Translations under genes and position numbers: made by a program | Notes under the pieces: generated by a model | What the model was told of the DNA's origin: nothing | Databases searched by the model: none | Seen by the model: the letters and a program-made list of their open reading frames with translations, nothing else | Shown here: one piece after another, positions 6,025 to 63,997 of the stretch | Layout of the letters: every line of letters starts with the position of its first letter | Position numbering within the stretch: the stretch's first letter is position 1 | From: a bacterium | GTDB lineage: Bacteria > Auribacterota > Auribacteria > Auribacterales > Auribacteraceae | NCBI GenBank assembly: GCA_024233545.1 | Contig: JACKPL010000004.1 | Span: 153,391 to 217,390 of the forward strand | DNA length: 64,000 nt | Direction: 5' to 3'

Positions 6025-6040
6025 AGTACATAATCCTTTT

Positions 6041-7561: not shown

Positions 7562-7566
7562 TGATT

Positions 7567-13369: not shown

Positions 13370-13404
13370 ATTTTACTAACTTTTTGGTTGTATAAGTTCA
13401 CTAC

Positions 13405-13436: not shown

Positions 13437-13444
13437 TTTCAAAG

Positions 13445-13520
13445 GGTGAGTGAGCGGGTTCGAACCGCCGACCTTCTGGGCCACAACCAGACGCTCTAAC
13501 CAACTGAGCTACACCCACCG
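13445..13520 (-). tRNA. tRNA-His (anticodon GUG) with a genomically encoded G-1 paired to discriminator C
   Basis: The reverse complement folds as a cloverleaf: G + GTGGGTG / TA / GCTC AGTTGGTTA GAGC / G / TCTGG TTGTGGC CCAGA / AGGTC / GGCGG TTCGAAC CCGCT / CACTCAC / C. The anticodon loop is TTGTGGC and the acceptor stem has one G-U pair. CCA is not encoded. Confidence 0.9.
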
Positions 13521-13596
13521 CAAATTTTCCAAACATATTACATAAAGAATCATAATAACTCAATAAAATTCTTATATGCATCTCCGTAATATAAAT

Positions 13597-13630
13597 AAAA
13601 CAGGGGCATATTTATTATGCCCCTGTTTTA
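13597..13630. terminator. Bidirectional rho-independent terminator: AAAA-ACAGGGGCATA-TTTAT-TATGCCCCTGT-TTTA. It is a perfect 11-bp stem with an A-tract on one side and a T-tract on the other. It lies 26 nt past the stop of the giant gene (13656).
   Basis: Perfect inverted repeat read directly from the sequence, with flanking A/T runs in both orientations. Confidence 0.75.
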
Positions 13631-13655
13631 TTACAGCACTTAATGCCGGTTTTTA

Positions 13656-16600
13656 TTACTTGACTTTTATATACAATGGTTTCGATACTGCACTATTTCC
13701 GCTACGATCATACGCTTTGACCTCAACTTTTATCAATTCGCTGTTCGTATCTTTTGGAATCATATATGAGTATGCAAAAGTACCGACCTCACTATCGATT
13801 TGATAAACGCTTTCGTCATTCGCAAAAACTTCCACTTTTATAACACCTGCTGAATCATAAAAATCAACGAGCAGGTAGAGTGTCGTACCGGGTAAGTATC
13901 CATCAGCAAAACGAGCTGAACTTCCCGTAGAAATAACGCTTACATAAGGAGCATGTTTCTCAGCAACTACATCTCTGTCCCAATTAACATTATCGACCAT
14001 AATGGCTCCTTCAGCCTCATTATTAAATACTGTAAGGCTAATAGTACTATTGGAACCGGCATATTCTGCAACTGGAACGGAGAATCGCTTTGCTAGAGCT
14101 ACGATTTCTACCGCATCGTTGCTGGAAGCAGATGTCAACTCTACATCACCGCTATTGATTTTGACCATCATTTTTAGTGGGCCGTCAATGTCAATAGCAG
14201 AAGTATTAGTAATTGATACATAATAATCCATCGTTGAATTTGCCCGGTTGAAATGCCCTATTCGCTGTACAACGTTAAGCATCGGATCAATGATAGCTCT
14301 TTCACCCTCAACTTCACCTTCAATATTCATACTAAAATCAAACCGAACGCCAGCATTCAGCTTAAACGAAAGAAGGAATGTTACAGCCTCGCCACTATCC
14401 AATGCCGAATTAATAATAATATACGGATCAAGCAAAACGCCTGTTGTCTCAAGCTTACTATCGACCACAACAAACTCTTCTTGCCCGCCATTCGAACCCG
14501 CAAGATGAACAATGACTTTCGGTTCTTTAGATAAGCGCACTTCGCTATCCATCAGATATGACACATCAAATAATAGGTATCTTGATTCAGCCGGAACAAT
14601 AGCGTCATTGAGCCGCAAATACCCGTTTCCGTTAATCAAAGCGGAATAATTTCCTTCGATTGCTGATAAAGTATTGTACTCCCTAACAACGGATACTTGT
14701 CCTTCATATGCGAATCCTTCCAATGTCCCCGATTCAAATCCACCATTAATAATCGGCGGCACTTCTTGAACCTCATTTGAAGTACTGTCATCGTCACCCG
14801 GGGATAAATCCCCTTCACCGCCACCGCCACTTGTAATGGCAAATGGCATATGAGCATATAAGTTATCGTAATAATAATACTGAGGCCATTGATACAGTGC
14901 CCACAAATCAGTATCAATTTCTAAGTCAAACGCATGAATCTCATAATCTGATAATTCATATATGTTATTATAGAATAAAAATGTCGATTGAATACTTTCA
15001 ATTGAACTGCCCGGAAATTCCATATTTTCCGCATAGTATTTTATTACATACTTGTAATACCGCGACAGCTCGTATTCTCGGGTCAGCAACGTTTCAAACG
15101 TATCAACGACGGTGTCAGTACTATCATAGAATGTACCGTATACCTTTAAATAAATACCATAATTATAATAGGTAAGTTCCAAACGTACGGCATCAGCAAT
15201 ATTACCACCGTATCCGCCATAACCACCGTATCCGCCATAACCGCCTAATCCCAACTCATCATTGCCATCGCCAGGACCAAAAGTCAATGGACCACCGCCA
15301 TAACCACCATAACCACCCATATTCAGATCGATATAAATAACACCGGAATCCTCAAAATAAGTGATCTCCCTATATCCTAATGCATCATGCTGGATATATC
15401 CATATCCGCCATATAAAGCCATACTGAAGTAATACCCTCCACGATATGACCATCCGACATTCTCTATTCCCGGATTGATTCCATTGGTATCGATCATTTC
15501 CATATATTCTGAATAGAGTACATGTACTTCGTCGCCAATAACTTTCAGTGCACCATTGACAGTAAACTGACCATTCTGTCCGCTTAATATTTCATCAGAT
15601 GCAACAATATCATTCGTGCTTACCGGGAAACCGGACGGAATAATAGACAATGGTGTTAACCTCATGAGGAACAGTTTAAAGCTATAGACTTGTGTATCAT
15701 ATCGCGTGTAGAGAACAACCAATTCATTTTCATTATCGAATTCGCATTCAAGAGCGGTAAAATATGAACTCGTCCTACTTTGATTGTTAAATGATTGAAT
15801 CATACTCGTATCAATCATTGTTTCGCCGGTTGTTCCATTGATCATTTTGTAATACACTTCATAAATACTCGACGTGTTCGGATAACGAGTCCACACAGCA
15901 TGCACATTGCCATCGTTGTCAACCGCAATATCCAAAGCTTTCATGTATGCATAAGAAGAAGAAATCGATGTATCGGAATACAACGTCATTTCAGGGATAA
16001 GAACATTGCCGTCGTTATCTAATTTCGTATATTTAATACTCGCAAGATATGCGTTTCGATTATCTTCAATCCATGCAATATGCGCATTATCCGAATCATC
16101 AACATCAATTCGTGCACAATAATTGTAGGATATCGGATTACCGAGCCCGCCAGCATCCATGGCATTGAGAACCGTTGTGTTCGTAATGATCTCATTATCA
16201 ACGTCAACAACAACATGTTGCACATCGGGATCATAGAATAATGTATACACAAAATGCTGTCGGTCTCCGCTATCTTTGTCCGAATCAATTTGCTTCAATT
16301 TATAGCTCTGATAATAACTGAAATAGGACTCTAATTTCGTCTCAATTGGCATCGTACCATCATTATCTAAGAAGAAATAGGACAGATGCGGGCCTCCAGT
16401 TTGATCTTCATGTATCATTAACGTTCCAACGCCATTGCCTGAACGTTCAATAACCATTTGATAATACCGTTCACTTCCTGTAGTAGGTATTACAACCTGA
16501 TGGTAATCATCAGACTCAATTGTCTCATCTGTTCCGTCGATAAGAACTTCTATAACATCGGGAACGAATCCTGTCGAATCGGTATTGATATTTGCCGGAT

Positions 16601-17390
16601 TTAACCCGAAAGCTAATTCGTCGGCATCGGGTATACCATTCAAATTATTGTCAGACTGGAATGTTCCTTGAGCAACAAGCGCACCACCTTGCAAACTTAC
16701 CGTAAAAACAATAGATCCGAAATAGTTCAGATTACGTATGATGTACGGCTGTCCATCATTGAAATAAGTACCTTGTGCTTCATTATCCATTGTAACAATC
16801 ATCTGGCCTGATACATCATTGGTAATATCAATTCTCTTCCCATCCTGATACACACCGATAACTGAGAAACGCGCCCGATCATAAATCAGTGCATTAGCCG
16901 GTTCAATTTCGATAGATGAAATAGGAATAACCGTAACAGTAACCATCGAAGAAACTGTTGAATTTTGTGAAAGATCATAGGCAGTCGCCTCAAATTGATT
17001 ATTAGGATCGCCAAGTAGCGGTGTCGTAAAATAGCCAATATATGGTGCGTTAGAATCAAGAACACCATAATGGCCGATCCAATAAATAAGCATATGATCG
17101 ATTGCAAAATTATCTTCGGCTGTTGCCTCCATAATAATATCATCACCTGCATAAACCGGTCCTTCATTTATGGAGAAAACCTGTACATTATGCGGCGGCA
17201 CAGGATCCGGCTCAATAACTACGGTAACAGCTGTACTATTATATACATTCCCTGATAAATCAAAGGCATGTACTTCAATTATTGAATTGGTAATGCTTGA
17301 CACTGGAGGGAATATAGCATTAACAAAATATTGACCGCTATCATTACGAACCGCTACCGCATCATTATCGATGATCAGTTCGATAGTCAT
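13656..17390 (-). CDS. Giant-gene segment 5 (C-terminal), 1244 aa. It contains Ig-like (Big) domains, a CBM4_9-like NGGFE module (about 14250-14760) and a Gly-Tyr low-complexity linker. It ends in an Ig-like domain with no recognisable sorting signal. It has no signal peptide, and its ATG lies only 11 nt after the previous segment's stop, so it is probably a frame-shifted continuation.
   Basis: ORF translation. Ig-like patterns (A.D..GN.S......V.V) recur throughout. The frame opens at 17408, only 4 nt before the upstream segment's stop. Confidence 0.8.
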   Translation of the reverse strand: MTIELIIDNDAVAVRNDSGQYFVNAIFPPVSSITNSIIEVHAFDLSGNVYNSTAVTVVIEPDPVPPHNVQVFSINEGPVYAGDDIIMEATAEDNFAIDHMLIYWIGHYGVLDSNAPYIGYFTTPLLGDPNNQFEATAYDLSQNSTVSSMVTVTVIPISSIEIEPANALIYDRARFSVIGVYQDGKRIDITNDVSGQMIVTMDNEAQGTYFNDGQPYIIRNLNYFGSIVFTVSLQGGALVAQGTFQSDNNLNGIPDADELAFGLNPANINTDSTGFVPDVIEVLIDGTDETIESDDYHQVVIPTTGSERYYQMVIERSGNGVGTLMIHEDQTGGPHLSYFFLDNDGTMPIETKLESYFSYYQSYKLKQIDSDKDSGDRQHFVYTLFYDPDVQHVVVDVDNEIITNTTVLNAMDAGGLGNPISYNYCARIDVDDSDNAHIAWIEDNRNAYLASIKYTKLDNDGNVLIPEMTLYSDTSISSSYAYMKALDIAVDNDGNVHAVWTRYPNTSSIYEVYYKMINGTTGETMIDTSMIQSFNNQSRTSSYFTALECEFDNENELVVLYTRYDTQVYSFKLFLMRLTPLSIIPSGFPVSTNDIVASDEILSGQNGQFTVNGALKVIGDEVHVLYSEYMEMIDTNGINPGIENVGWSYRGGYYFSMALYGGYGYIQHDALGYREITYFEDSGVIYIDLNMGGYGGYGGGPLTFGPGDGNDELGLGGYGGYGGYGGYGGNIADAVRLELTYYNYGIYLKVYGTFYDSTDTVVDTFETLLTREYELSRYYKYVIKYYAENMEFPGSSIESIQSTFLFYNNIYELSDYEIHAFDLEIDTDLWALYQWPQYYYYDNLYAHMPFAITSGGGGEGDLSPGDDDSTSNEVQEVPPIINGGFESGTLEGFAYEGQVSVVREYNTLSAIEGNYSALINGNGYLRLNDAIVPAESRYLLFDVSYLMDSEVRLSKEPKVIVHLAGSNGGQEEFVVVDSKLETTGVLLDPYIIINSALDSGEAVTFLLSFKLNAGVRFDFSMNIEGEVEGERAIIDPMLNVVQRIGHFNRANSTMDYYVSITNTSAIDIDGPLKMMVKINSGDVELTSASSNDAVEIVALAKRFSVPVAEYAGSNSTISLTVFNNEAEGAIMVDNVNWDRDVVAEKHAPYVSVISTGSSARFADGYLPGTTLYLLVDFYDSAGVIKVEVFANDESVYQIDSEVGTFAYSYMIPKDTNSELIKVEVKAYDRSGNSAVSKPLYIKVK
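15190..15330 (-). repeat. Low-complexity Gly-Tyr repeat (GGYGGYGGGPLTFGPGDGNDELGLGGYGGYGGYGGYGG) inside giant-gene segment 5
   Basis: Plus-strand repeats of accaccgtatccgccataacc. Confidence 0.8.
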
Positions 17391-17401
17391 GTTATCGCCC
17401 G

Positions 17402-20400
17402 TTACGCGTCAAATGGGATCAATACGGAGCTTTCGCCGCCAATATAATGGCGGTCATTGATATCAGCCGGTAAATCCAGTTCGACTGTTGGAGCGCCTCC
17501 AAGATCATGATATATATTCACAATCGCCGCTTCTCCCGATTGAACAATCAGTTGATTGCCATAAATATAGCAATCGGTAATCTGATATTCAATTGGTACA
17601 TTAGTAAATTGAGAAACAGAACCAAGTACTATTTCCGAACCCAGAGAGGATGTATCAAGGAAAAACACATCGTTCATACCATGTATAACCGTAAAATCGC
17701 CAATTGAATCAATACCCATAGGCATTTCTCCATCCAAATCGTCTATGAGAATGAAAGCTGGCGTACCAAAACTTAATGGCGTTTGGGTAATTCCTACTGA
17801 GAACAACCCACCGATTTCGTCTGTCGCATATAAGACGGAATCTTTAACTTCCAAATCGCCAAAATCCGGTAATGGAGCTTCTGGAGCAGGTGTATAAAGC
17901 GTAATTGTCTGCAACAGTTCAAGGTTATCCAGTTCATACACATGAATTTGTCCCCTGCGGGTCAAGCGGTATAGATTGTCTTCAGTTGCTTCCAACGCAA
18001 GTGTCCCGCTGTCATTGTCCTCTATTCCCGGCAATACTACAGGCGAATTCGGGAACCGTACATTGAGTACCCACACACCATCGTCATGGCCGACATATGC
18101 CCGATCGCCATTAAGCAATATAACGCCTTCACGGTTCTCTATCGTTTCATCATCCAACTGAATCTGCGCCTTAAGATTGAAATCATACGGATCGAAGCTA
18201 GCGCCCATTACAATAAATTGCGTAGATGACCAGCCGCTATAAGTGCCGACACCGTAGATAAAGCCATTTTCGACAACAAAATGATACAATGAATAAGGAT
18301 TTGCAGTCGAAGTATATACCAACCTATTCGCTGTTGATATTCTCGGCACGTTTCCAAGGAACGAAAGCTCGCTACCTGCAAACTCAAGTTCCCCGCCAAT
18401 ACCTGTTTCACCTACACCAGACTCACCTTCTCCCCCTCCACCGGGTATAAGCGAACTAATATCATATACTTCTAGAATCTGATACGAGGTAATATATAGT
18501 TTATCGTCAAGAACATACGTATCATAGACGTCGCGATCATCATATCCGGCAGTCGGCTCTGCTTCAAAGAGCAGATTAACTTGTACCGATATCTTACTTG
18601 AACGATTGCCGGCATAATCCTGAGCAATTACTCCAACAGTCATTGGATCAGAATAGACGTTTACCGGTATAACAATCGGACGGTCAAATGTTCCGTCTTC
18701 TTCCGGTGAAAGAACATCAATGATATCGTTATCGAAGTAGATTTCAATAATCTCAACCATGGATTGTGTCCCGGAATTATCCGTTGACACCCCTATAACA
18801 TCTACCCACGATCCGCCGATTACCGTTTGTCCGGCAATAGGTTCGGTCATGGTTACAGCAGGAGCTTCAGTATCATCAAGTATGGTTATTGCAATCTTAT
18901 CGCTTCGTCCGATATTACCGAACATATCTTTCGCCCGAACCTCGATAGTTAACACATCGGAAGCACCATCAATGATCGGCAACCTCTTAAGAATGGTAAG
19001 CGACGACTGGCCATTGGCATTTATCGTTTCAGCCTTGATATTATTGTAGAACATTTCAATAGCATCAATGTTTTCATCAACTGCAGATATTTGTATAGAT
19101 AATAAATGCCCTTCAAAATACGATTCATTATCAAGCGGCGAGACGATCGTAACAACCGGCACAGCAACATCCGGCAACAATTTATTGATTCTGCCGAATA
19201 CCGCAACAGGGCCTGCAACACTATTCTGCGCGACAACCGTTCCGGTTTCCACATCAATTTTTGCAATGAGATTATCCGCTTTTGAAAACACAAACAATGC
19301 ATTCTCGATTGTATCAAACTGTAATCTATCCGGTGATGGCACAGACCATGAATCCACTTCATTCAGTGTTGTCGGGTCGAATACCAGAATAGTGTCATTA
19401 TCCGGCAGAGCGGCAAGTATCCGTTCTGAGCCGGAGATAACAACCGATTCAATACTCGATATCTCAGAATCAACTGTTCTAAATAATCCAGCCGCTGATG
19501 TAAACGGGCCAGTATCAATTCTTGCTATCTCATATTGGTTTGCAGACTGATAAAAGCGTCCGACATACAAGATATTACCTGCCTGATTCAGATTAATCGC
19601 TGTTCCTCTGTATGCACTTGCAGATGTAAAACCTGTTAATGATCCGTTTCCTGTAGTCAGGTCATAGTTGGTAATACGAGAACACCAATAACTTGGATGT
19701 GACCCATCCTCATACCCATATTCCGCAATATATATTCTTCCATCAGGTGCGGTTACCGTACCTCGAGCACCCCTGATATACTGGTAGCCATACGGAGATG
19801 TAGACGGTGAATCGATATTCATTACCGTAACATAATCAAATGGATATTCAGGGAATAACAACGCAAACAACTGTGAGTTTTGTTCAGCCAACTCTACAGT
19901 TTGCGTGCGGAAATACTGGTTGCCGGTTCGATAGCTGAATACCTGTGCATTAAAATCAACCATTCCAAGTTGTTCACGCTCGCTTTGCGTATCATACATC
20001 GCGATAAACAACTGATCGCGTTGTTGATGATATTTTGCATCGGTTGCGACAAAATTAACTCCGGTTGATATTCCTAAATCTCCCGCTATCAAGGTATTGG
20101 TATCTAAATCAAATAGAGCGCCAGCATTATTGACCATCAAAAGTTGATTATAGTCGCTTCGAACGACTGTCAAAGCCACAGAATCAGACGTCATTAACCC
20201 TGCATAGTCAACTGCAATAACCTCAATTGTCGCCGATGCTTCAAGCGCATCTTCCTCAATCGGAATTGATGTTTGGTAAGGAGCTCCTCCAAGGTTGAGA
20301 TAGGCTTCGGTTCCTAAGAATTTTACAGGAACTCCATTATACAACACTTGGACAAATTTAATGTTATCGGTGGCATCACTTATTTCGACATTAAGTACGA

Positions 20401-23400
20401 CGAATGAATCAGCATAGGCTGTTTCGTTATCCTCTGGAATAACGATTGACACAACCGGCGCATCGGTATCATTAAGAACAGTTACTGTCTGCGGCGCCGA
20501 TTGAGCCCTGATTCCCGAAACATCTGTTACTTGAGCATATACTTCAAACGACGCAACATCAACAGGAACTCTATAAGTAAATGAATATGGTCCAACGATT
20601 TTCTCTTCAAAACGTTCGCCATTGATATACAATGATACATTTCGTATGCCGATGCTCGAAGTCGGAAGCGCAGTAAATGTCAATGCCGTCCCTTCTGTCG
20701 CGCTGGAAGGCACACCATTCAACACAATCGAAGGAGGCACAGTATCAAAAATTGTCAACAGGTGATAATCGACATCTCTTGTTCCGATAGGCATAGCGAT
20801 ATCTTCAATATTCTTTGTTGCTATTTCAATCTTCCGAATATAATTATTACTGGTTGCCATATAGAGATACCTGCCGTCATCGCTTATATCCATAGCATAG
20901 ATTGACGGCAATGAAGCCATATCAAGCCAGAGTTCCGCTTCACCTGTTTCAGGGTTATACATATAAATGTCATCAGGCGAATCATAGAACATGAATACGC
21001 GGAGCCCCATAGGTGTCAACCCGCCAACAGGATACTGGCCGCCGACATTAGTTTTTATTTGTGTAAATGAGGTCGATGCCGTATCAATCTCATACAATGT
21101 ACCATTATTATTCGTATTGGTAATATATGCCTTATTGCCGTATGGCAACATAACCATCTCATAATCCAAACCGACTCCTGACGAATCGCTATACCTTTTC
21201 ACTTCTGAATAATCGTCCAGATTAAATACCAGTATTCTGGAATAGGTCGGGTCAGAATAAGTGAACGATTGATTGCTTACATACAAATACTGTCCATCCG
21301 GAGTTACCACAACACTCCACGGATAATAGAGGCGGGTTCCCGTATTTGACGTAGTAATTTGATGAACAACAGTAAGGCTTTCCAGAGAAACAACCATAAC
21401 CTTATTATTATACGCACTTGTAATATATGCGAGTTTCCTTACCGCATCAAATGCAATGTCACGCGGCCCATCAAATCCATCGGAATAGGTGAAAACCTTA
21501 ACAATTTCACGGGTAAATTTATTGAACACAATTACTTCGTCATTTCCTTGACGGAATAAGAACCCATACTGCAAGGGTGATATCTTTATGTAATCTGCAT
21601 TATTGATTAACAATTCAGTTGTCGCATGCGTTATGTCATCAGTGACAAATAATCTGTAAGCTGACGTATAAGCTATTGAGAATAATTTGCCTTGTTTTAC
21701 AAATGTCTCTGGGCTTGTTATACCGTTAAGTATATTCGACAGATCGCTCACATTACCAGCGCCGTCAACCGCAACCGCAGTAATTGTAAACACCTGACTA
21801 TTCGATACATTATCGTCAAGATACAATATTGTCTGATAAGGCGGTACAGTAGCTACCGCTGTCGAGCTGTTTACCCCATCAAAAAGGGTGTATTCCACAC
21901 GGCTGATCGATGCGTTGTCTTGCGCATTGGCGGTTACGACAACCGGCATTCCCGCGTTTACACCCACTAAATCGGTTACCGCGGCGATCGTTACGGTCGG
22001 TGCTATGCTATCGTCAACAACAGTTATTGTAATAATTGAGCTCAATGCTGAGTTCCCTGCAAAATCATACGCTTTCGCTTGAATCTCGAAAGGCGTTGCT
22101 CCTGATGGAACATTTCCTACAAACGGGAAGGCAAACGGTGTTTGAGCATCAGTTCCAAGCAAGCCGCCATTGAGGTAGTATTCAACAAATTCTACTCCTT
22201 GATTATCGTCAACAGTTGCGACCAAGGACACCTCTTCTCCGACAAGATATGATTCTTTTACCGGATCAGCGGCAAGTTCGATAGTCGGATTTACTGCATC
22301 AGTTGCCGTACTCATCAATATCCTGCGATAAATACCCGAAGTCGGATAGTACGTATGCGACCAGTCACTGGTTTTAATAACGCTGTACCCTGTATTAGAC
22401 TGATAGTAAACAAATAAATACTTACCATCAGGAGTAAAGTCCGAATCCATAGGCACATATGGTAATGAAACGTTGGCAATAGATGTATAACTATCAGAAC
22501 TGAGCCCACCTTCTATCTTCCTGATATATATGATGTTTGAAGACCTATAGGCAATAGCCATTACCGAAAGGGTGTCGCTTACTTTTCCAATGGAGATATT
22601 ACCGTTATTAACATTAATATCTACGTTGTAATAGTTGGATCCAGTATCTGCATGGAACTTTCTATAGTCGTCAGTTGAGTAAGGCATGTAGATTAAATCA
22701 TTGGTACCATCAAAATAATTCTCCACATCCCATCCATAATTCATAGCGATTGCTGAAGGCAATGAACCAGTCGATTCAAGATTCGTTACCGTCCATCTTC
22801 TGGAATAATACGTACTTGAATTATACGTAGACGGCGAAGCCGCCCATAACGTATTTCCGCTGTGGCTCAACGCCAAATTCACCCTTACATATTCACCTGA
22901 GTTATTATACAAAGACGGCCCGTCGTAGCTGGTTGTGAAAATCGGGTCTCCGGTGCTTTCAGGATCAATACATACAGGAATATCAAGCACCACAATCTTG
23001 CTATTTCCAGTAGGTGATGAGGAAGAAGAATTCCACTCGGTGGATACGTATGCAAAACGGTCATTCTTATCGATAACGATTGATGAGAACCGTCCTTTAA
23101 ATGTTCCTGTATCATCAATTTCACGAACCAATGTGCCTTGAGGCATTTTGTATACGCGAATCTTATTAAATGACTGTGATGTGGAAGCTGATAGAGCAAA
23201 CAAGTATTCTCCATCGTGAGTCGATGCCATGTCGGTAAATTGTCCGCTGTTTGTTCCACCCGGCGCATTAAGAACCGATGTCATCCCGTTAAAATCGAGA
23301 CGGTGTATTTCGCGCTGATTATACGAAGCGGCAACAATTATGTCAAATACCGGTTCTAGCACATTTAAAGTAATAGAAGTTGATGCTGAATTGCCAACCG

Positions 23401-26400
23401 AGTCAATTACGGTAACTGCAATAACAGAATCTTCTCCGATAACACCATTATCAAGACGGAATGTTGCCGCCGTGAATGGCGGTTGAGTAACCGGCTCTTC
23501 AGCACGGTCATTAACACTGATTTGCACTTGAGCAATACCACCGTCATCGGTAATATCAAGAGCAAGTGTAACAAGCGAATTCAAGCGTGCATCCGAACCG
23601 TGAGCCGGCGAAAGGATAGCCACATTCGGGGCTTGCGTGTCTGCCACTACTCCATAAGTAACAGGTACCATTGCAGTAGTATTCCCTGCCGCATCACGCG
23701 CAACAGCCCTCACAACAATACTTTGTCCTTCACCGGTGAACGCCGGTACCTGCATTTGAATCGGATACGATGGCGCTACGGTAGAAATACCCATGGATTC
23801 ATTATCCAAGAGCAATTCGACCTGTTGCAGTACAAAATTATCCGTCGCATTAAACGCTACATTCACTCGTTTCCCTTCGACCAATTCAGTGCCTTGAACC
23901 GGCGAAGTAACGAAAATTGTCGGCGGAACATTGTCAAACATTTTTCCAGAATACATTGGTCCATAATTATAATTTGTCGACTCTATTCGGATGATCGGCA
24001 GTAACGTGACCGAATCAACAACGTCTGTTGCGCCGGAACTGCTGGCATCGCCATTAAAGAACAACGCTTTGCCGTCCGGTGTCAATTCGCCAAAATCCGC
24101 ATCATAAAGGTCAAGGCTGACTGTTGCCTCAACTTGCAGAGTATCAGCATTGATCTTGTAGATGGTTTCAGGCCCGGTAACAGTAACAACAAATGCTTTC
24201 GGCCCTTCGGGCGTATATCCTGCCGCAACAGCATATGAACTGCTGTTTAATGCTATAACTTTTTCCACACTTAAGGTATCGAGATTGATAATAAACAATC
24301 TGCTGTTTCGAGTCGACACAAACGCATACGGCGAACCTGCTATGGTTGCAACTTCATACGGTGTATACTGCGATGTTGTGCCCGGTTCAATGGTCGGTAT
24401 ATTTTTGATAATCATACCGTTCACCGCATTCATTACCGTAATGCCGCGTTCCGTACCGGAATGGTTACAAACCAAGATATATTTTTCGTCAGCAGAACGG
24501 AATAAACGTTCCGGTTGGTCAATAGTCTGAAAATCGGATATGGAGAACAGATAGTTAAAACCGGTGTGGCCAAGTGTATCAAATACATCTATCTTATCAT
24601 GGTTAGGACGAGCACAGAACAACAAGTCTTCGTTTTTGGATAACATAAGCGCTCTGGAATAGATGTCATATGTCCCTGTATATTCGTAATCCTGTTCTCG
24701 GTTTCCATTCAAAAGGTTAAAACGATACAATCTCCCGTAATAATCCGTTCGAGCCGTATACGCTTTTTTACCATCTTTTGTAGCAACAATATTGTATGGG
24801 TAATACGAATTGCCGCTTCCATAATCTGCAATTCGCTTATAGGATTTTGCATCAAAGACAGTAAATGTATAGGCACCGTAATTAGGTTTAAGAATAACAT
24901 CCATAAGAAATGGTTTCGAAGCAACCGTGAGAGATACAACACTGCTTACTGCCTGATTGCCGTTTTCATCAAAGGCGCGAGCATAAAGATCAAGTACGGC
25001 TCCCTCGTTTTCCGATAACCTTAACCCAAAGTCATACGGCGCTTGGGTATCGTTGTCAAATAATGCGCCGTTAATATAAAGTTCGACAAGGGCGACCCCT
25101 GCATTATCTGTTGCCGCCACATTGACAAACAATACATCGGTAGCGCCGATTTTATTTCCTGTAGCATTTGTACTGGCAATTGAAACTATCGGAGCAGTAT
25201 TATCGGGAACCACATCAACAAGAATCTGGTCTGACGCGGATGCTCCGCCAAAAGTAAATGCTTCAACTTCTATTACAACATCATTAAGCGGTGTAGATAC
25301 ATCGGGTAATGTAATGGTTGTTTCAAACGGCGGCGTATGCATGATATTGACTACAGTGCCGTCAATTTTAAAATGCATATCCGATACCACTTTCGGGTTA
25401 CTGACATCAACTTTGACAAGCAGTTTTGCACGCGAGGTGTACGTACCCGGCAATGGCGATACCATAGAAACCGTAAACGGTATAACCGCTGATTGATCGG
25501 GTGTTAATAAATATCCAACACCGTTTTCTCCATAAACCGAATACAGCTTTTTAATAATAGTAAAAGAATCAATATCGACAATTGATAACTCGCCCACTCC
25601 ATTTGTCGTTGTTGCAACAAGTAATTTGGTCGGATCAGACTGGGGCACTGTTAGACTCGCAATGTCTCCAAACCCACTCAATGTTGCCATTACTGTATCT
25701 GTCTTGGGATCGATCTTAAAAATAGTATTTTGAGTATCGCTTGCAATAGGTACATAACCTTGCGATGACACACCAGATACTAGGTTTTCAAGGTCATATG
25801 TCAGAGGAATTATCGTTACAAACTGTTTAGTAGCCATATTCATGACTTGGATATCTTCACTGTAATAAGTCGCAAAATAGGCTTTGGTTCCATCTGCAGG
25901 AATTGTAACTTTCCGCAGTGTTTCATTGTTCTGGCTTGGAAATGTCTGAGTGGCCTGCGAAATCAGATTGACTACTGCAATGGTATTCGAGTTATTGATT
26001 GTATAAATCTCTGTCCCATCAGGCGAAATATCCATATCGTAACCGTTAGTTGGTACATAAATAAAACTTTGCATGGTATCAGTCTGAGTATTAATCAGGT
26101 TGATTGTAGTGTTATAATCGAGAACGTATGCCAGATTGAGTTCTGGTTTGAATATGGCTTCCCACTGATTTGTTCCGTTATAAGAAGTAGCCATATTTAT
26201 TGTCTTTACATTATATGTCAACGGATCAATAGCATACATACCTCGTACATTTCCTGAAGCAACATAGATACGGCTTCCGTCAGGCGAAATATCAACTTTA
26301 TTGGCAGAAGTAACCGGAATTGTTGCCTCTATAACTCCAGTCTCAACATTGATAACCGAAACGCTATTCGCACTGGAATTCGGTGAAAGAATTCGGGCAA

Positions 26401-29400
26401 CGAGCGGTACATCAATAGTAATTGTTACAGAATCTGTACCAATATTGCCTGTCATGTCATATGCAGTAACTTCAATTGTTGCTGATTGGTTTGTCATTGA
26501 AGCAGGAATACGAAGGAGCACTTCCCGCTGATCGCTATCGATTACAATCGGCACACCGCCGCTTAGCGTTACCTGAATTGCATCAATACTGCCGCCTATC
26601 GATGATGAATCATCCGCAGTAAACGTAACCAAAACATTGCTGTTTGCATAGACTGTATCATTATCTTCCGGTGAGATAATTGATACAACAGGCGGTGCAG
26701 TATCTTCAAGTACTGACAAATTAACCGGTAAGGATTCGCCGACATTTCCTAACCAATCTGTTGCCCGCAGCTTGATTGAGATATTCGACGCATCGGTAAC
26801 TCTCGGAATCAATACCGATCCTGCAAACGGCAATTCAGGGTCTGTATCAGCCAACAAGACTTGGAAACCTGTTCCGTAATCCATCAGCAGTTCTACCGAC
26901 CGAATAGGCAGAGCATCAAGGATTGAAGCTTCGACAATAAGTTCTATATTTTCGGATACAGATGTTCCATCTAAAGGCGATGTTATAGCAATTACCGGAG
27001 CATCTCTATCATCAGGTATATTGATAACCTGAGTTGCAGTAGAAATACTGTTGTTGAAGAGGTCTCGTGCACGTAACGAGATTGAAAAATCAGTTCCGAA
27101 TTCTTCAGGGCTGACTGGAATACTCATAGTAAATGCCGGGCCTTTTGCCGAATCGAGAGACCTGCCGTTTACAATAAGTTCGACCGTTGCCTGATCGTCA
27201 TCACTCGCTGTTCCCGTAACCACTATCGCATCATTGTCAAACATTATATTTGTAGCCCCAAATACCGGCATACCTTTTCCGACACCAAAATCAAATTCTG
27301 TTAATGTAGTGCTTGAAGACAATCGCGAAACATATACATAATATCCGTGCACTTTAACCGTTTCACACGATGAATTGAGTGTCCATTGAGTCACTAAATC
27401 CAACGACGGGAGCGAATAGACATCAAGACGATCGTATTTTACTTGATAGAGATAATTACCGAATACATCAATACCATCAGAATCTTTTCCAGTATCCGAC
27501 AAATAAAGTATTCTTGTTGGAGTTGCCTTGCTTGTATTGAGATCAAATACAACTATCCCGTAATAATCTATACTTGCATAAAGCTTGTTGTCTTTAATAG
27601 CCAAGCCGTTATGATTATTACTGCTTTGAGTGTCAAGCTGTGCTAATTCCTGCATGTTTGCAGGGTTGCTGACGTTATATGAGAATAATGCATCCTGATC
27701 GCCAACGTACAAATAATTCTTAGTATTATCCAGTATGGCTGAATACGGAAAATCATTTGTCGGGCGAACAAGAGATTGGATAAAAACGGGGTTTTCTCTA
27801 TCAGAAATATCGTAAGAAACAATACTATTGTTATATATCGTAAACAACGTATCATTTCCATTATATACAGCGAAATAAGCATTAAGAGAGATTACTTTAA
27901 CTCGTCTAATCTTTGTGGGCTCGCTAATATCAAATATGTACATCCCGCCTCCATCACTCGGCGCATAGAGATAATCGCCGGCGATAGCAAAATGATATAC
28001 ATATCTGCTGTCCATTGTATCTTGGCTGACTAAATTAAACGTACCGATATCAACAACGCGTATACCGCTACTGCCGCCAAGAAACGCATACTGTCCTCGT
28101 ATCTCAAACCACTCGCAATTTGTAATGTTTATTGAGCGAGTCTGCCCATTGAAAATGAACGCAGGATTAAGCTCGACTACTGCTTCTGAACTTAACAATT
28201 CATCATCAGTCACAATGACATTCAATGAAAGCGGTTCATCCAAATCAGAGTTTGCTACAGTAAAATTCACACTTACCGATGTCGGCGTACCGGGATCGCC
28301 GGTATAGGAATTGTTGTAATAGATTTGCGATCCATTCTGCAATACTTCTATGGTATTGATCGAAGGTGTAAGCCCAAGGTCTTTCACCCTGAATTGCAAT
28401 GTATGAACTGCACCCGCCCTAATGATGTCTCCATCTTCATGCGAAGTAATCTTAACTACGGGGGCGCCATTTTGAGAAGTGGTAATCGTTACGTCAACAG
28501 CATCGCCTTGGTTTCCGGCGACATCGTATGGCGTTACGGTAAACACATTATCGGTCAATAACCCGTTTATTCCAAAGTTAGTTTCAAACGTTACTAAATT
28601 GAGATCAGACCACCCATCCGGTACAGGAAGAGTCACTATATCGAGAGGTTCAGCGCTTCCGCCGGAACCGATTTCAATCTTATCAACCCAAACAGTATCT
28701 CTTCCACTGCATACACTGCCGTCTTTGTAATACATAAACTGTAAATTATGCGTTCCAACAGTTAACGGAGTGCTAAAGAATGTCCATCCCGAATAACCGC
28801 CAACATTGAGCACTAAATTACCATCAACATATAATCGCAATTTATCACAGCATGATTCTGTTTCGAGCTTGTAATAGAACGATATTGTCGTTGCTTCAGG
28901 AATATCAACGGTCAAGAACATCGAACTGTTTTGACTATCCGTTAAAGATGTTGGGCCTTGAGCTGAATACGACCCTTCATATTTTTCGTCAGTAGTAATA
29001 TTCCAGAATCTGTTAGAACTGCCGGTGAATGTCCAAGCTTGTGCGCTGAAATCGCCGGTTTCAAAATCATCAGAATACCCTTGAGAAGGCATAACAAATG
29101 CGGTTTCATCAAAATCAATGACGATATGGTCGACCGCAATATTATCGGTAACCGTAATCGCAACATCAAGCAGTTCGCCGACTGTTCCTTGAGTATCCCC
29201 TGTAACATTCTGGACAACAGGATTGATGGTATCTTCACCGATATTCAATGTGATTAACGATGTATACCCAACATTTCCGCTTAAATCCATTACGCGGGCC
29301 TGCATAGTTACCGAACCGGCATTTTGTGCATAATAGTACAGTTCATAAGGCGGCACAAAATCTTTCTTGTATGGTTTTCCGTCAACAAGAAATTCTACCG

Positions 29401-29644
29401 TCACCGCATCTTTGTTTGTGACATCAACTTCAACGATCGCCGTATCATCGAGTAAAATGGTGTCATTGTCAGAATGCGATACGATGTTTGCTATCGGTGC
29501 ACCAGTTTCAAACGCATTCAATTCATATACACGCACACCATTATTATAATTACAGACAAAAAGCAGATTACCGTATATATCCATGTTGCGGAAAGTGTTG
29601 CTTCCAGAAATTGTACCGAGCAGTTTAATATTATTGCGAATAGC
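17402..29644 (-). CDS. Giant-gene segment 4, 4060 aa from the ATG at 29584. The frame is open and repeat-like back to a TAA at 29645-29647. It has an N-terminal LVIVD-type repeat and no signal peptide, then Ig-like domains and a MAM/CBM-like jelly-roll with Cys pairs (about 28640-29075). At least three YVTN-type beta-propeller repeat arrays follow, interleaved with tandem Ig-like domains.
   Basis: ORF translation. YVTN repeats include DISPDGSRIYVASGNVRGMYAIDPLT, LAYVLDYNTTINLINTQTD, EIYTINNSNTIAVVNLISQ. The in-frame sequence upstream of the ATG (AIRNNIKLLGTISGSNTFRN-MDIYGNLLFVCNYNNGVRVYEL) continues the LVIVD-like repeat. Confidence 0.8.
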   Translation of the reverse strand, partial: AIRNNIKLLGTISGSNTFRNMDIYGNLLFVCNYNNGVRVYELNAFETGAPIANIVSHSDNDTILLDDTAIVEVDVTNKDAVTVEFLVDGKPYKKDFVPPYELYYYAQNAGSVTMQARVMDLSGNVGYTSLITLNIGEDTINPVVQNVTGDTQGTVGELLDVAITVTDNIAVDHIVIDFDETAFVMPSQGYSDDFETGDFSAQAWTFTGSSNRFWNITTDEKYEGSYSAQGPTSLTDSQNSSMFLTVDIPEATTISFYYKLETESCCDKLRLYVDGNLVLNVGGYSGWTFFSTPLTVGTHNLQFMYYKDGSVCSGRDTVWVDKIEIGSGGSAEPLDIVTLPVPDGWSDLNLVTFETNFGINGLLTDNVFTVTPYDVAGNQGDAVDVTITTSQNGAPVVKITSHEDGDIIRAGAVHTLQFRVKDLGLTPSINTIEVLQNGSQIYYNNSYTGDPGTPTSVSVNFTVANSDLDEPLSLNVIVTDDELLSSEAVVELNPAFIFNGQTRSINITNCEWFEIRGQYAFLGGSSGIRVVDIGTFNLVSQDTMDSRYVYHFAIAGDYLYAPSDGGGMYIFDISEPTKIRRVKVISLNAYFAVYNGNDTLFTIYNNSIVSYDISDRENPVFIQSLVRPTNDFPYSAILDNTKNYLYVGDQDALFSYNVSNPANMQELAQLDTQSSNNHNGLAIKDNKLYASIDYYGIVVFDLNTSKATPTRILYLSDTGKDSDGIDVFGNYLYQVKYDRLDVYSLPSLDLVTQWTLNSSCETVKVHGYYVYVSRLSSSTTLTEFDFGVGKGMPVFGATNIMFDNDAIVVTGTASDDDQATVELIVNGRSLDSAKGPAFTMSIPVSPEEFGTDFSISLRARDLFNNSISTATQVINIPDDRDAPVIAITSPLDGTSVSENIELIVEASILDALPIRSVELLMDYGTGFQVLLADTDPELPFAGSVLIPRVTDASNISIKLRATDWLGNVGESLPVNLSVLEDTAPPVVSIISPEDNDTVYANSNVLVTFTADDSSSIGGSIDAIQVTLSGGVPIVIDSDQREVLLRIPASMTNQSATIEVTAYDMTGNIGTDSVTITIDVPLVARILSPNSSANSVSVINVETGVIEATIPVTSANKVDISPDGSRIYVASGNVRGMYAIDPLTYNVKTINMATSYNGTNQWEAIFKPELNLAYVLDYNTTINLINTQTDTMQSFIYVPTNGYDMDISPDGTEIYTINNSNTIAVVNLISQATQTFPSQNNETLRKVTIPADGTKAYFATYYSEDIQVMNMATKQFVTIIPLTYDLENLVSGVSSQGYVPIASDTQNTIFKIDPKTDTVMATLSGFGDIASLTVPQSDPTKLLVATTTNGVGELSIVDIDSFTIIKKLYSVYGENGVGYLLTPDQSAVIPFTVSMVSPLPGTYTSRAKLLVKVDVSNPKVVSDMHFKIDGTVVNIMHTPPFETTITLPDVSTPLNDVVIEVEAFTFGGASASDQILVDVVPDNTAPIVSIASTNATGNKIGATDVLFVNVAATDNAGVALVELYINGALFDNDTQAPYDFGLRLSENEGAVLDLYARAFDENGNQAVSSVVSLTVASKPFLMDVILKPNYGAYTFTVFDAKSYKRIADYGSGNSYYPYNIVATKDGKKAYTARTDYYGRLYRFNLLNGNREQDYEYTGTYDIYSRALMLSKNEDLLFCARPNHDKIDVFDTLGHTGFNYLFSISDFQTIDQPERLFRSADEKYILVCNHSGTERGITVMNAVNGMIIKNIPTIEPGTTSQYTPYEVATIAGSPYAFVSTRNSRLFIINLDTLSVEKVIALNSSSYAVAAGYTPEGPKAFVVTVTGPETIYKINADTLQVEATVSLDLYDADFGELTPDGKALFFNGDASSSGATDVVDSVTLLPIIRIESTNYNYGPMYSGKMFDNVPPTIFVTSPVQGTELVEGKRVNVAFNATDNFVLQQVELLLDNESMGISTVAPSYPIQMQVPAFTGEGQSIVVRAVARDAAGNTTAMVPVTYGVVADTQAPNVAILSPAHGSDARLNSLVTLALDITDDGGIAQVQISVNDRAEEPVTQPPFTAATFRLDNGVIGEDSVIAVTVIDSVGNSASTSITLNVLEPVFDIIVAASYNQREIHRLDFNGMTSVLNAPGGTNSGQFTDMASTHDGEYLFALSASTSQSFNKIRVYKMPQGTLVREIDDTGTFKGRFSSIVIDKNDRFAYVSTEWNSSSSSPTGNSKIVVLDIPVCIDPESTGDPIFTTSYDGPSLYNNSGEYVRVNLALSHSGNTLWAASPSTYNSSTYYSRRWTVTNLESTGSLPSAIAMNYGWDVENYFDGTNDLIYMPYSTDDYRKFHADTGSNYYNVDINVNNGNISIGKVSDTLSVMAIAYRSSNIIYIRKIEGGLSSDSYTSIANVSLPYVPMDSDFTPDGKYLFVYYQSNTGYSVIKTSDWSHTYYPTSGIYRRILMSTATDAVNPTIELAADPVKESYLVGEEVSLVATVDDNQGVEFVEYYLNGGLLGTDAQTPFAFPFVGNVPSGATPFEIQAKAYDFAGNSALSSIITITVVDDSIAPTVTIAAVTDLVGVNAGMPVVVTANAQDNASISRVEYTLFDGVNSSTAVATVPPYQTILYLDDNVSNSQVFTITAVAVDGAGNVSDLSNILNGITSPETFVKQGKLFSIAYTSAYRLFVTDDITHATTELLINNADYIKISPLQYGFLFRQGNDEVIVFNKFTREIVKVFTYSDGFDGPRDIAFDAVRKLAYITSAYNNKVMVVSLESLTVVHQITTSNTGTRLYYPWSVVVTPDGQYLYVSNQSFTYSDPTYSRILVFNLDDYSEVKRYSDSSGVGLDYEMVMLPYGNKAYITNTNNNGTLYEIDTASTSFTQIKTNVGGQYPVGGLTPMGLRVFMFYDSPDDIYMYNPETGEAELWLDMASLPSIYAMDISDDGRYLYMATSNNYIRKIEIATKNIEDIAMPIGTRDVDYHLLTIFDTVPPSIVLNGVPSSATEGTALTFTALPTSSIGIRNVSLYINGERFEEKIVGPYSFTYRVPVDVASFEVYAQVTDVSGIRAQSAPQTVTVLNDTDAPVVSIVIPEDNETAYADSFVVLNVEISDATDNIKFVQVLYNGVPVKFLGTEAYLNLGGAPYQTSIPIEEDALEASATIEVIAVDYAGLMTSDSVALTVVRSDYNQLLMVNNAGALFDLDTNTLIAGDLGISTGVNFVATDAKYHQQRDQLFIAMYDTQSEREQLGMVDFNAQVFSYRTGNQYFRTQTVELAEQNSQLFALLFPEYPFDYVTVMNIDSPSTSPYGYQYIRGARGTVTAPDGRIYIAEYGYEDGSHPSYWCSRITNYDLTTGNGSLTGFTSASAYRGTAINLNQAGNILYVGRFYQSANQYEIARIDTGPFTSAAGLFRTVDSEISSIESVVISGSERILAALPDNDTILVFDPTTLNEVDSWSVPSPDRLQFDTIENALFVFSKADNLIAKIDVETGTVVAQNSVAGPVAVFGRINKLLPDVAVPVVTIVSPLDNESYFEGHLLSIQISAVDENIDAIEMFYNNIKAETINANGQSSLTILKRLPIIDGASDVLTIEVRAKDMFGNIGRSDKIAITILDDTEAPAVTMTEPIAGQTVIGGSWVDVIGVSTDNSGTQSMVEIIEIYFDNDIIDVLSPEEDGTFDRPIVIPVNVYSDPMTVGVIAQDYAGNRSSKISVQVNLLFEAEPTAGYDDRDVYDTYVLDDKLYITSYQILEVYDISSLIPGGGGEGESGVGETGIGGELEFAGSELSFLGNVPRISTANRLVYTSTANPYSLYHFVVENGFIYGVGTYSGWSSTQFIVMGASFDPYDFNLKAQIQLDDETIENREGVILLNGDRAYVGHDDGVWVLNVRFPNSPVVLPGIEDNDSGTLALEATEDNLYRLTRRGQIHVYELDNLELLQTITLYTPAPEAPLPDFGDLEVKDSVLYATDEIGGLFSVGITQTPLSFGTPAFILIDDLDGEMPMGIDSIGDFTVIHGMNDVFFLDTSSLGSEIVLGSVSQFTNVPIEYQITDCYIYGNQLIVQSGEAAIVNIYHDLGGAPTVELDLPADINDRHYIGGESSVLIPFDA

Positions 29645-30090
29645 TTAGCATCCCATACAGCAATACCGGTTAGCGTTGAGTTGCTCGAAACAAATGCAAT
29701 ATCGCCGATTGATAACAGACCGCCCCATTGATAATTGTGTCCTGATGGGGATTCGGTATCAACCCATGATCCCGTAGCAGTAGCGCTTGCGCCTCGCGCA
29801 TCAGCAACAGCTATCCGGCTACTTCCTACAACCAACACATAGTCGCTATCTAACGCCTGCAGATACCGAGTATAGTAATAATAACTATTGTTCAACCAGT
29901 TATTTGTCGTTCCTGACAGCGTTTCGACATCAGAAATATCTGCATTTAACAATGAGAAATACGGATTGGAATACTCACCTGTCCAATATGCCATATTGCC
30001 TTCCAACCATACACCAAATGCATAATATGAGCTGGTTTTACTGCTGTAGTATTTCGCTCGCCGACATAACGGTAAGACAACGTAGGCACG
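29645..30090 (-). CDS. Giant-gene bridging segment 3, in the third reading frame (track ORF 29518-30006, 162 aa, starting at TTG). It carries protein-like LVIVD-type sequence and connects segment 2 to segment 4 through two frame changes.
   Basis: The frame-C translation is ...YAFGVWLEGNMAYWTGEYSNPYFSLLNADISDVETL...DSDYVLVVGSSRIAVADARGAS...IAFVSSNSTLTGIAVWDAK. It is protein-like precisely where the flanking ORFs' own frames turn into non-domain-like text. Confidence 0.65.
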
Positions 30091-33000
30091 GTCGGATTCG
30101 TATAATTCACATTTGAAATATCGAGCACCTGTAGTTGATGCCTGTATGCCGCCGTAAAAGCATACTGTCCGCGCACTTTAACATCATACACATTTCCATT
30201 TGTACCGAAATTATGAGTTCCGACATGAACAGGCTGAACCGGGTTCGCAATATAATACGTACCCAATCCGGAAGATGCGCGGGCAACATAGACAAAATCA
30301 CCTTGATAATCAATATTATGAGCGGCTGTCGTAGAGAAAGTACTTTGCGACCTGTTGATGAGATCAATCACCGCTAAACTTGAATTGTTTGCCACATACA
30401 TCCACTTCGGCGACACAGTTGTCGGTAAACTGGATTGATTCGTAACAGGATCACCGACCACATACACATCTTCTGCGGCAAATGATCCGCCGGTAACACT
30501 TCCATTGTTGTACAGACGGTATAATTCGCCCGAATTAGTGATTTCCCTGATAGCAAAAGTGGTAATGAGTTCAACAGGCGCAGTAATGGTGAAATTATCA
30601 CTGATATCTTCAGCACGCACTTTAAGCTCTGTAGTGTGGCCTGCATTCCCGGGGACAGTCAAGGAATACGAATAAGGAGTGGTTGTATCGGTAAACACTA
30701 ATGCACCGTCAACAAAGAATTCTACTGCGCTAATTAAACCGCTATCTTGTACATTCGCTTCAATTGACACCACTGATAGCCCTGCAATAACTTCTAACCC
30801 GTTAACCGGTGATGTTATTGTAACCGACGGCGCCGATAAGTCATCAGTCACCGCAAAAGACTTTTCAGCTAAGAGAGTTACATTGCCGTTAATATCCTGC
30901 ACTGCGCCCGATATCACGAGCGGAAGAGGAGGATTGCCCAAAGGCAATGGCACGTTTTGAATAGTGAACGGCGGTTTATTAAATAATGTTTGTACGCCGT
31001 TGACATTAACTGTAACAACCTGAATACCTAGATTGTCCTGAGCCGATATATCGACCGTAGTTGTTGTTCCTTCAAGGAGGAACTTATCATCGGTAGGCTG
31101 AATAATACTTATAACAGGAGATTCATTATCTTCCAAAACAGTAACAGCAACTTCCAGTGCTGATGTGAACGTAATATTTCCACCCAAATCAATAGCATTT
31201 GCATTGATAAGAAGCGTTGAAGGCCCGCTGTTCGGGGCAGTAAGATAATCGAATTGGAATGGAACAGTATTATCTACTGCGACCACTTCACCATTAACAA
31301 GAAATTCGATAGTAACGCCAGTATCATCTGTTGCAGAAGCGGTCAACAGGATTGAATTGCCTTCAATGACTTGAGTCGGCACAACGCTAACGGATTGAAT
31401 TTGCGGAGCTTCCAACTGGCCGCTGATAAGCCTCAGCAATCGTATTCCGCTGGTATCGTTAGCAATATATGCAATGTCGCCAACCACATCGATATCAATA
31501 GCATCAGCTCCGGTACTTGCATTTCCTACTAATGTCATCTCAAATGGATTCTCAACGTTAACCATTGCTATTCCATTTGTTCGGTCTGAAACAAAGGCGA
31601 TAGAACCGACAACATCCACGTATTGTGTTTGACTTAATCGATTAGGACCGGATAACTTGCGCGCCAATCCCATACCGATTAATTCTGCAGTTTGCTCTTT
31701 AAGCTGATATGACAACAAACCAATACCATAATCGGCAATATATACAATATTGTTATTGATACTGATTCCTCGCGCATCGCCGGAAGTGTCGTAGGTATTT
31801 TTTAATACCGGTGAACGAGGGTTACTTATATCGATTGTAGCCATACCATTTGTACCTTGAGTCAATATAAGCACATTACCTTGAATTGCTATTTTCTTCG
31901 GCCCTGTTACCGATATTTGCGAACCTGAAATTTCAAATGGCGTTGCAGGGTTATTTAAATCAAGCACGGTTAATTTATTTGCCGTTTCATCTGAAACAAA
32001 AGCAAACTGGCCGCGAACCTGTACATCATTAGCGCTTGAGAATATATTTCCCGTCTCGCCAATAAATTCCAATTCTTCATTTTCAAACCTGAAAATCACA
32101 AAATTCGTAGATGTTATTGCATATATTGTATTTTGAATGACTACCAGATCACTAATAGTATACGTTGCATCACTCGTAACAAGGCTGATATTGAGCGGAT
32201 CGGATATATTCAATACAACCAAGCCGCCTGCACCGTCAGCAACGAACGCATAATCGCCGACTACTCTCATATGAGTTGCATCAGTCGTCGGGAAATCAGC
32301 TAAAAATTCTGTACTAATGATAATATCAAGAGTAATCGGTGCAGATATTCCAACTTGCCCTACCGAATCGATCGCTTTAGCACGGATATCTACCACAGCG
32401 CTTCCCGTACCGTTTGGTATCTTGACTGTACCGGCATAAGGTGCAGTTGTATCGACTACTGATGCGCTGTCGTTATCCTGAACACCATCAACAAAAACGA
32501 AGAACCGAACGCTTTGTATTTGCCCGACATCGTCTGATGCATCTGCCGTTGCAGTAATTTCCGAACCGGACGCAACAACGGTATAAACAGGTGGAGAGGT
32601 CACAACCACATTCGGCGGCAAATCGCCCGTAATGGTTCCTGTAATAGTCACCACCGTACTAGAATCTCCTGCATCGTCTGTTGCGAAAACAGATATTGTC
32701 ATGGTCTCGCCTTCAGCTGTCGCAGGGATAGGATAATTACTCACTGTATACGGCGAAGAATTTCTCACAAATTGCTGAGTAATCGGCGCACCGGCTCCTT
32801 GAGATATCTCAATATCAATTGTAACTGATCCGATTAGCGGAATCTGGTTATTATTGACATCTTGGTCATACGCAAAAGCCTGAATGGTAAGAACATCACC
32901 TTCAGTAACCTCAAAACCATTAACCGGCGCAAGGAATCCCGCAATCGGCGGTATATTAGTTAGCGCGTTTACCGTTGCAGTGGCAGTACTGGACACCATC

Positions 33001-63997: not shown

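Follow-up and report, generated by a model that had tools for sequence, protein, structure and literature searches.

A giant gene, divided among five reading frames in the deposited sequence, for a probable secreted Ig-like and beta-propeller surface protein of Candidatus Auribacterota

Proteins of at least 10,000 amino acids (10 kaa) are frequent in several bacterial phyla (bioRxiv 10.1101/2023.11.21.568195), and a survey of 18 metagenomes reported 3,650 of them with a maximum length of 147,155 aa (bioRxiv 10.64898/2026.06.07.730766). Assembly problems often break up the genes for such proteins. RTX-type giant adhesins such as SiiE, MpIBP, and LapA, which are acidic and poor in cysteine, likewise carry long arrays of bacterial Ig-like domains. 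Here we describe a comparable gene in a 64,000-nucleotide stretch of DNA (the window) from a genome assigned to the phylum Auribacterota (assembly GCA_024233545.1, contig JACKPL010000004.1, positions 153,391 to 217,390 of the forward strand), a phylum whose naming paper does not mention a giant protein. Like other genes of its size class it is split in the deposited sequence, where the minus strand from 13656 to 64000 is tiled by five stop-free stretches, which we call seg1 to seg5 in the order of translation:

35090–64000, minus strand: seg1, frame 0, 9,636 codons from 64000 to 35093, open at the window edge, ending in a TAA at 35090–35092
29946–35108, minus strand: seg2, frame 2, 1,720 stop-free codons from 35108 to 29949
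29518–30177, minus strand: seg3, frame 1, 219 stop-free codons from 30177 to 29521
17402–29644, minus strand: seg4, frame 0, 4,080 stop-free codons from 29644 to 17405
13656–17408, minus strand: seg5, frame 2, 1,250 stop-free codons from 17408 to 13659, the C-terminal end of the gene

The region had come to attention through a sequence-only reading of the window, which listed five consecutive minus-strand open reading frames (ORFs) of >9635, 1710, 162, 4060, and 1244 aa separated by gaps of 0–11 nt or by overlaps. Our ORF list reproduces all of these, with 11-nt gaps between the called ORFs at 35079–35089 and 17391–17401 and overlaps at seg2/seg3 and seg3/seg4. At the local GC content of 41.8%, the chance of an open frame of 9,636 codons is about 1e-259. 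The frame order along the gene is 0 to 2, 2 to 1, 1 to 0, and 0 to 2, and since all four changes have the same sign, each can be mended by one added base. Four such additions (a T to the TTT at 35092–35094, an A to the AAAA at 30036–30039, one base after 29644, and one after 17405) yield a single ORF of 16,782 codons within the window that contains no other stop. The rejoined product in the window has a mass of 1.81 MDa, an isoelectric point of 4.3, and 0.2% cysteine; it has no transmembrane-like stretch (no hydrophobic run of at least 17 residues) and no match to an enzyme family. The four junctions are as follows:

35089–35094, minus strand: J1, a TTT run followed by AAA; with one added T it reads ...EEGVYILNKNTLTQ...
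30028–30044, minus strand: J2, most likely at the A4 run 30036–30039; with one added A it reads ...NTTAVKTSSYYAFGVWLEG...
29630–29647, minus strand: J3, frame-0 TAA at 29645–29647, without a homopolymer
17402–17408, minus strand: J4, a shift within 4 nt (CGCG) between the new-frame TGA and the old-frame TAA, without a homopolymer

Formally, J2 can be placed anywhere in 29949–30177, where both frames are open, while the frame-0 TAA at 29645–29647 puts the J3 shift at or after 29644. The rejoined peptides across the junctions read EEGVYILNK, AVKTSSYYAFGVW, VWDAK-x-IRNNIK, and IPFDAVTGDN. The frame changes had been described as lying away from homopolymer runs, which holds for J3 and J4; the repairs at J1 (TTT to TTTT) and J2 (AAAA to AAAAA) fall at short runs. 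We also considered repeat-collapse misassembly as the cause of the breaks and ruled it out, because the gene contains no long near-identical DNA repeats.

To ask what the junctions interrupt, we compared the protein with Pfam and with itself. Across seg1, seg2, and seg4, Pfam families comprise TIG (10+2 stretches), Big_5, Big_7 (2+14+6+4), LVIVD, Beta_propel, and a lactonase/YVTN-type propeller, with seg1 carrying arrays of TIG, Big_5, Big_7, and LVIVD. LVIVD (PF08309) scores 133, 104, and 121 bits in seg1a, seg1b, and seg2, against a Pfam gathering cut-off of 20.2, and pieces at the junctions score 41 and 29 bits. The domain vocabulary proposed from the sequence alone is borne out for these families; the discoidin-like and CBM-like modules it also included appear only as sub-threshold hints (F5_F8_type_C at 25.7 bits with a cut-off of 28.2, and CBM_4_9 at E 0.08). 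At E ≤ 0.001, seg3 and seg5 are without a Pfam family, and for seg5 NCBIfam likewise gives no match. The latter segment holds Ig-like domains, a low-complexity Gly-Tyr stretch (GGYGGYGGYGG), and about 700 residues without a Pfam or NCBIfam match, and the C-terminus of the protein is an Ig-like domain. Within this C-terminal part, at approximately 13659–16400, the unmatched residues include DNDGN...W motifs and an NGGFESG motif, the latter being the site of the weak CBM_4_9 hint (E 0.08). Every junction interrupts a folded domain, LVIVD beta-propellers at J1 to J3 and a beta-strand of an Ig-like domain at J4:

34767–35569, minus strand: LVIVD beta-propeller cut by J1, four blades in seg1 and two in seg2 (counted by eye)
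29495–30500, minus strand: beta-propeller cut by J2 and J3, seven blades, of which 1–3 lie in seg2, 4–6 in seg3, and 7 in seg4 (counted by eye)
17205–17497, minus strand: Ig-like beta-sandwich of 98 aa cut by J4 (AlphaFold2)

At J1, residues 9506–9935 of the rejoined protein align colinearly with an intact paralogous module at 10637–11065 (E 6e-29), and a second intact module, residues 6619–7141, also aligns across the junction (E 4e-17); the gap at J1 in these alignments is two residues at most. AlphaFold2 run on the J1 propeller as a single sequence was uninformative (predicted local distance difference test, pLDDT, of 35). Across J2 and J3, residues 10980–11639 align with 10392–11010 (E 3e-20), and at J3 an LVIVD unit aligns through the junction with an intact paralogue. 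A separate propeller alignment for J2/J3 was dropped, as the repeat register was ambiguous, and a blade count by a home-made hidden Markov model was left unused, being patchy and partly circular. For J4, a profile of the 98-aa domain that spans the junction gathers 49 full-length Ig-like paralogues from within the window, and AlphaFold2 supplied with this paralogue alignment returned a confident beta-sandwich (mean pLDDT 88.1, predicted template modelling score 0.78). A predicted strand at residues 24–32 of this domain spans the junction at A31|V32. Foldseek comparison of the model with the Protein Data Bank retrieved Fn3-like and bacterial Ig-like adhesin modules, including those of SiiE (2yn3) and MpIBP (4kdv). 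These results uphold the proposal that the five ORFs are parts of one gene in which the reading frame shifts by one base within a domain at every junction, with no spacer.

Signals for initiation and termination were then located relative to the segments. GGAG-like sites precede the starts of the flanking genes. No ribosome-binding site precedes the candidate starts of seg2 to seg5, and the N-termini of these segments do not resemble signal peptides. A single terminator hairpin follows the last stop:

13597–13630, minus strand: intrinsic terminator hairpin after the last stop, with a 13-bp core stem, a 7-nt loop (read from the sequence), and a T-rich tail

Folding of this hairpin (ΔG −24.8 kcal/mol, z −6.5 relative to shuffled sequences) substantiates the single strong terminator that had been read after the last segment. 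A simple terminator scan of 13300–18000 did not have this hairpin in its list; it is the sole convincing terminator near the 3' end of the gene.

To find relatives, we searched the GTDB species set with a profile combining the window and P0122, a JGI fragment 52% identical to it. Four genomes were recovered (loci L012–L015): QZJZ01000080.1 (Ca. Auribacter fodinae SURF_26), CAXXKF010000001.1, JAHDNF010000003.1, and CAYVGJ010000007.1. Besides Ca. Auribacter fodinae they comprise a genome labelled Ca. Auribacterota bacterium, whose contig measures 1.18 Mb, and two metagenome-assembled genomes; the gene starts near 590,400 in CAXXKF010000001.1, running downward, and near 332,400 in JAHDNF010000003.1, running upward. 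Their proteins are 59–68% identical to, and colinear with, window residues 1–2,461 and 2,505–4,293, and each is encoded by one unbroken ORF of 5,067–7,025 stop-free codons that runs to the end of the DNA read for its locus. This reading covers the 5' part of the gene, with the positions equivalent to J1–J4 lying in the 3' halves beyond it; the search for an uninterrupted orthologous ORF that the sequence-only reading had proposed is thus answered for the 5' part and stops short of the junctions. The orthologous genes have a GC content of 0.40–0.44, similar to that of the window, and the same Big_7/TIG/LVIVD architecture, and the ORFs are unannotated in their records. Each has AAAGGAG ahead of its ATG start and begins with a Sec signal peptide. 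Window residue 1 corresponds to orthologue residue 2,740–2,769, and the first 2,740 orthologue residues form a Big_7 array. The orthologue start positions indicate that about 2,750 codons of the window gene lie upstream of the window, in agreement with the earlier expectation that only the 5' end beyond the window edge could carry a signal peptide. By sequence comparison, the window gene belongs to an orthologous group of giant genes conserved in Candidatus Auribacterota, and the match places its organism in Auribacterota or close to it. A short ORF upstream of the orthologue at L014 has no Pfam match. In the JGI fragment P0122 (locus L006), the nearest relative in the protein databases, similarity is lost after PVEVSFV and the last ~190 residues are unlike the rest, for which a frameshift or chimera in the JGI contig is the likely cause.

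More distant homologues occur in Myxococcota (Corallococcus and Myxococcus), colinear at 25–34% identity with window residues 1 to approximately 6,000–7,500. The giant proteins WP_147443728.1 (Corallococcus sicarius), WP_172817642.1 (C. exiguus), and GEL71664.1 (Myxococcus virescens) resemble the window protein in combining IPT/TIG with Ig-like domains, and they carry an N-terminal Sec signal, with the window start corresponding to their residue 2,450–2,690. They differ in that the records are 3.6–8.0 kaa long, mostly partial at contig ends, and come from high-GC hosts. For the 3' 9 kaa of the window gene, no Myxococcota counterpart was found; a second giant ORF at one Myxococcota locus (L004) was considered as a relative of this part and proved unrelated. 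Genes for parvulin-type peptidyl-prolyl isomerases (PPIases, rotamases) flank the Myxococcota giant ORFs, at 5980–6843 and 30724–31566 in L004 and at 1–1131 in a second locus, L005, and may encode dedicated folding helpers; the window contains no PPIase gene. Small opposite-strand ORFs without a Pfam match lie beside the 7,693-aa ORF of L005 (1131–10000 and 33082–38613), and these stretches may be frameshift-broken giant-gene sequence in the ENA scaffold.

Taken together, the region is most probably a single gene, whose product would be a very large, acidic, secreted surface protein of the adhesin type; LVIVD and YVTN-type beta-propellers are interspersed among its tandem Ig-like domains (Big_7, Big_5, and TIG). 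Translation would begin at a Shine-Dalgarno sequence and ATG that lie about 2,750 codons before the window edge, and a Sec signal peptide would follow, as observed in the orthologues; the gene ends at 13656, ahead of its one strong terminator. The deposited sequence is short of one base at four places, giving five ORFs; should these deletions be errors, the organism would make a single polypeptide of about 19.5 kaa (~2.1 MDa). The longest unbroken frame as deposited has 9,636 codons and is open at the edge, or approximately 12,400 when the ~2,750 upstream codons inferred from the orthologues are added. Counting both these codons and the four repairs, the full gene would have about 19,500 codons and specify a product of about 2.1 MDa, an estimate drawn from sequence comparison.

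We conclude with high confidence that the five ORFs make up a single gene. On a contig of 232,180 bp, NCBI does treat three of the segments as separate proteins, seg2 as MCP5462454.1 (H7A34_04660, 1,698 aa, GTG start at 35042), seg3 as MCP5462453.1 (H7A34_04655, 158 aa), and seg4 as MCP5462452.1 (4,060 aa), each sequence-identical to our translation and one of them bearing the name 'lactonase family protein'. Some in-frame start codon is present in each segment, and related Myxococcota loci have several large ORFs side by side, as a cluster of separately translated surface proteins with abutting ends would. However, each boundary lies inside a propeller or Ig-like domain, so that the products would start and end with broken domains, and seg2 to seg5 lack ribosome-binding sites and signal peptides. 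With blades 4–6 alone in seg3, the 158-aa 'protein' of NCBI amounts to three orphan propeller blades. Moreover, the genes between the Myxococcota ORFs, where called, are PPIase genes set off by real spacers, in contrast to the gaps of 0–11 nt or overlaps seen here, and we regard five true genes as very improbable. Even less credence can be given to programmed −1 ribosomal frameshifting at the four sites, or to any other recoding, although all four shifts are in the −1 direction and tRNA-Lys could re-pair on the A_AAA that is found at J2 only. The slippery heptamer X XXY YYZ is absent from the zero frame at J1, J3, and J4, where the junction codons are UAU AUU UAA, AAG CUA UUC, and GAC GCG UAA and the P-site codons AUU, CUA, and GCG cannot re-pair in the −1 frame. 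No RNA structure above that of shuffled sequences is predicted in the 93–95 nt downstream of J1 to J4 (z −0.98, −0.07, +1.06, and −0.14), so a stimulatory structure is missing at every junction. The four sites share no motif, and four successive low-efficiency events would leave almost no full-length product. We are nearly certain that recoding plays no part. Among the three readings raised at the outset, namely an intact gene with sequence errors, a fresh pseudogene, and recoding, the last is thus disfavored and the other two are not separated.

Whether the four deletions are errors or real is more finely balanced. The four lesions are all of one type, a pattern more typical of systematic error, and J1 and J2 fall at short homopolymers. 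The 7,146 codons after J1 (21 kb) contain no nonsense codon and retain their Ig-like and propeller motifs, which means that any decay must be very young, and the orthologues are unbroken over the readable part. There is also a published precedent, in which correcting an assembly error turned a pair of neighboring giant ORFs into a single ORF of 74,983 aa (bioRxiv 10.1101/2023.11.21.568195). If the deletions are instead real, J1 truncates the protein at about 12,400 residues, the N-terminal part remains functional, and the unselected 3' 21 kb has gained three further lesions, making the gene a very recent partial pseudogene. Several observations weigh towards such decay, or at least against an intact gene. 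Over window positions 1033–12965 there are zero indels relative to six independent assemblies of the same organism (99.2–99.97% identity), so over these 11.9 kb the assembly is not generally indel-prone. All four lesions fall in the last 21.45 of 50.34 kb, downstream of the 57% point of the gene as seen in the window (P = 0.033 if lesions were placed uniformly); such clustering would follow if an initial, real truncation had relaxed selection on the sequence beyond it. Neither J3 nor J4 sits at a homopolymer. None of the independent assemblies or orthologue sequences that could be retrieved extends across J1–J4, and orthologues of the 3' part, which may be lineage-specific and dispensable, did not turn up in the protein and contig collections. 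Similarly, we found no protein record for seg5 in the collection and none for seg1 in a library of 1.84 billion representatives, and the 5' 8 kb of the gene outside the window could hold further lesions. On balance we lean slightly towards errors, made in consensus calling or assembly, within a part of the gene that is variable. We put at about even the chance that the gene is intact in nature and the four deletions are errors of consensus or assembly, and a little below even the fuller proposition of an intact, single, Sec-secreted protein of about 19,500 aa that is conserved across Candidatus Auribacterota and has distant kin in predatory Myxococcota; real lesions in a young pseudogene are a somewhat less probable account that must be taken seriously.

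The six other assemblies of the same organism (L001–L003 and L009–L011), found via the flanking genes, all end at 11280–12965, before the giant gene, and what lies beyond may differ between strains or be difficult to assemble. Exact look-ups with seg5, SulP, and seg2 turned up no contig that encodes them. The protein clusters of seg2, seg3, and seg4 contain the H7A34 metagenome-assembled genome alone. Junction-spanning queries retrieved nothing beyond seg2 of the window itself and distant LVIVD proteins. The matches of this homologue search are all approximately 0.55–1.7× the query length, so that its missing hits are weak evidence; such a length limit would account for its failure to return the 4,060-aa and 158-aa proteins of the window. 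A genome scan with seg5 and a scan of JGI metagenomes with the junction peptides found no close relatives. In the assembly comparison, differences are clustered in short tracts (10462–10723, 8872–8900, and 5773–5797), which look like recombination between strains. Two Logan contigs end at 1033, inside a 980-aa DUF2963-repeat ORF (718–3660).

Downstream of the giant gene, the window contains one further feature close to its end:

13444–13518, minus strand: tRNA-His (anticodon gtg), between the giant gene's terminator and a SulP/STAS transporter gene

A second hairpin with a T-run follows the tRNA-His gene at about 13410–13440. Elsewhere in the flank, the longest trpF ORF (9556–10263, TTG start, 235 aa) overlaps trpC (10181–10993) by 83 nt. 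Since trpF is called at 212–220 aa in other assemblies, its true start is probably further downstream.

Merging the fragments alters what this genome is thought to encode, as NCBI holds three of them as separate hypothetical proteins. The little-studied Auribacterota, described as fermentative heterotrophs, would spend about 59 kb on one secreted adhesin-like protein, an investment that hints at attachment to particles or other cells. The gene is a further entry in the lengthening catalogue of protein families above 10 kaa. If intact, it would stand for a giant Ig/propeller surface-protein family that has not been described before, and would probably be the phylum's largest gene. The initial suggestion that the product ranks among the largest bacterial proteins, with seg1 alone exceptional, does not stand, given how frequent proteins of at least 10 kaa are and the lengths to which they extend (up to 147,155 aa).

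Among described systems, the window gene resembles the large and giant proteins of West-Roberts et al. (2023) in falling into the 15–20 kaa class, in being repetitive, and in its predicted extracellular location. The giants of Omnitrophota differ from it: they are larger, with maxima of 85,804 aa (2023 survey) and 147,155 aa (2026 survey), and often have many transmembrane helices together with enzyme domains. The window protein is not of this type, because it is shorter than 30 kaa (about 19.5 kaa at most) and has neither transmembrane helices nor enzyme domains. Within the same phylum, a ~6,000-aa extracellular protein of Ca. Menyafoubacter (PMC12057145) is likewise large and secreted, with a Sec signal and no transmembrane helix; it differs in having a CASH beta-helix, a PL6 lyase, and Rhs, and is one third the size. 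With the RTX-type giant adhesins SiiE, MpIBP, and LapA, the window protein shares long arrays of bacterial Ig-like domains, acidity, and a paucity of cysteine. It differs from them in that its orthologues use an N-terminal Sec signal and in that propellers are interspersed among its Ig-like domains. No RTX or C-terminal type I secretion system features turned up in Pfam scans of the window protein, and because it lacks RTX repeats and its orthologues carry a Sec signal, we do not class it with the RTX/type I-secreted adhesins. The kind of gene is already known and opens no new mechanism; by function, its product looks like the other giant tandem-Ig surface and adhesion proteins.

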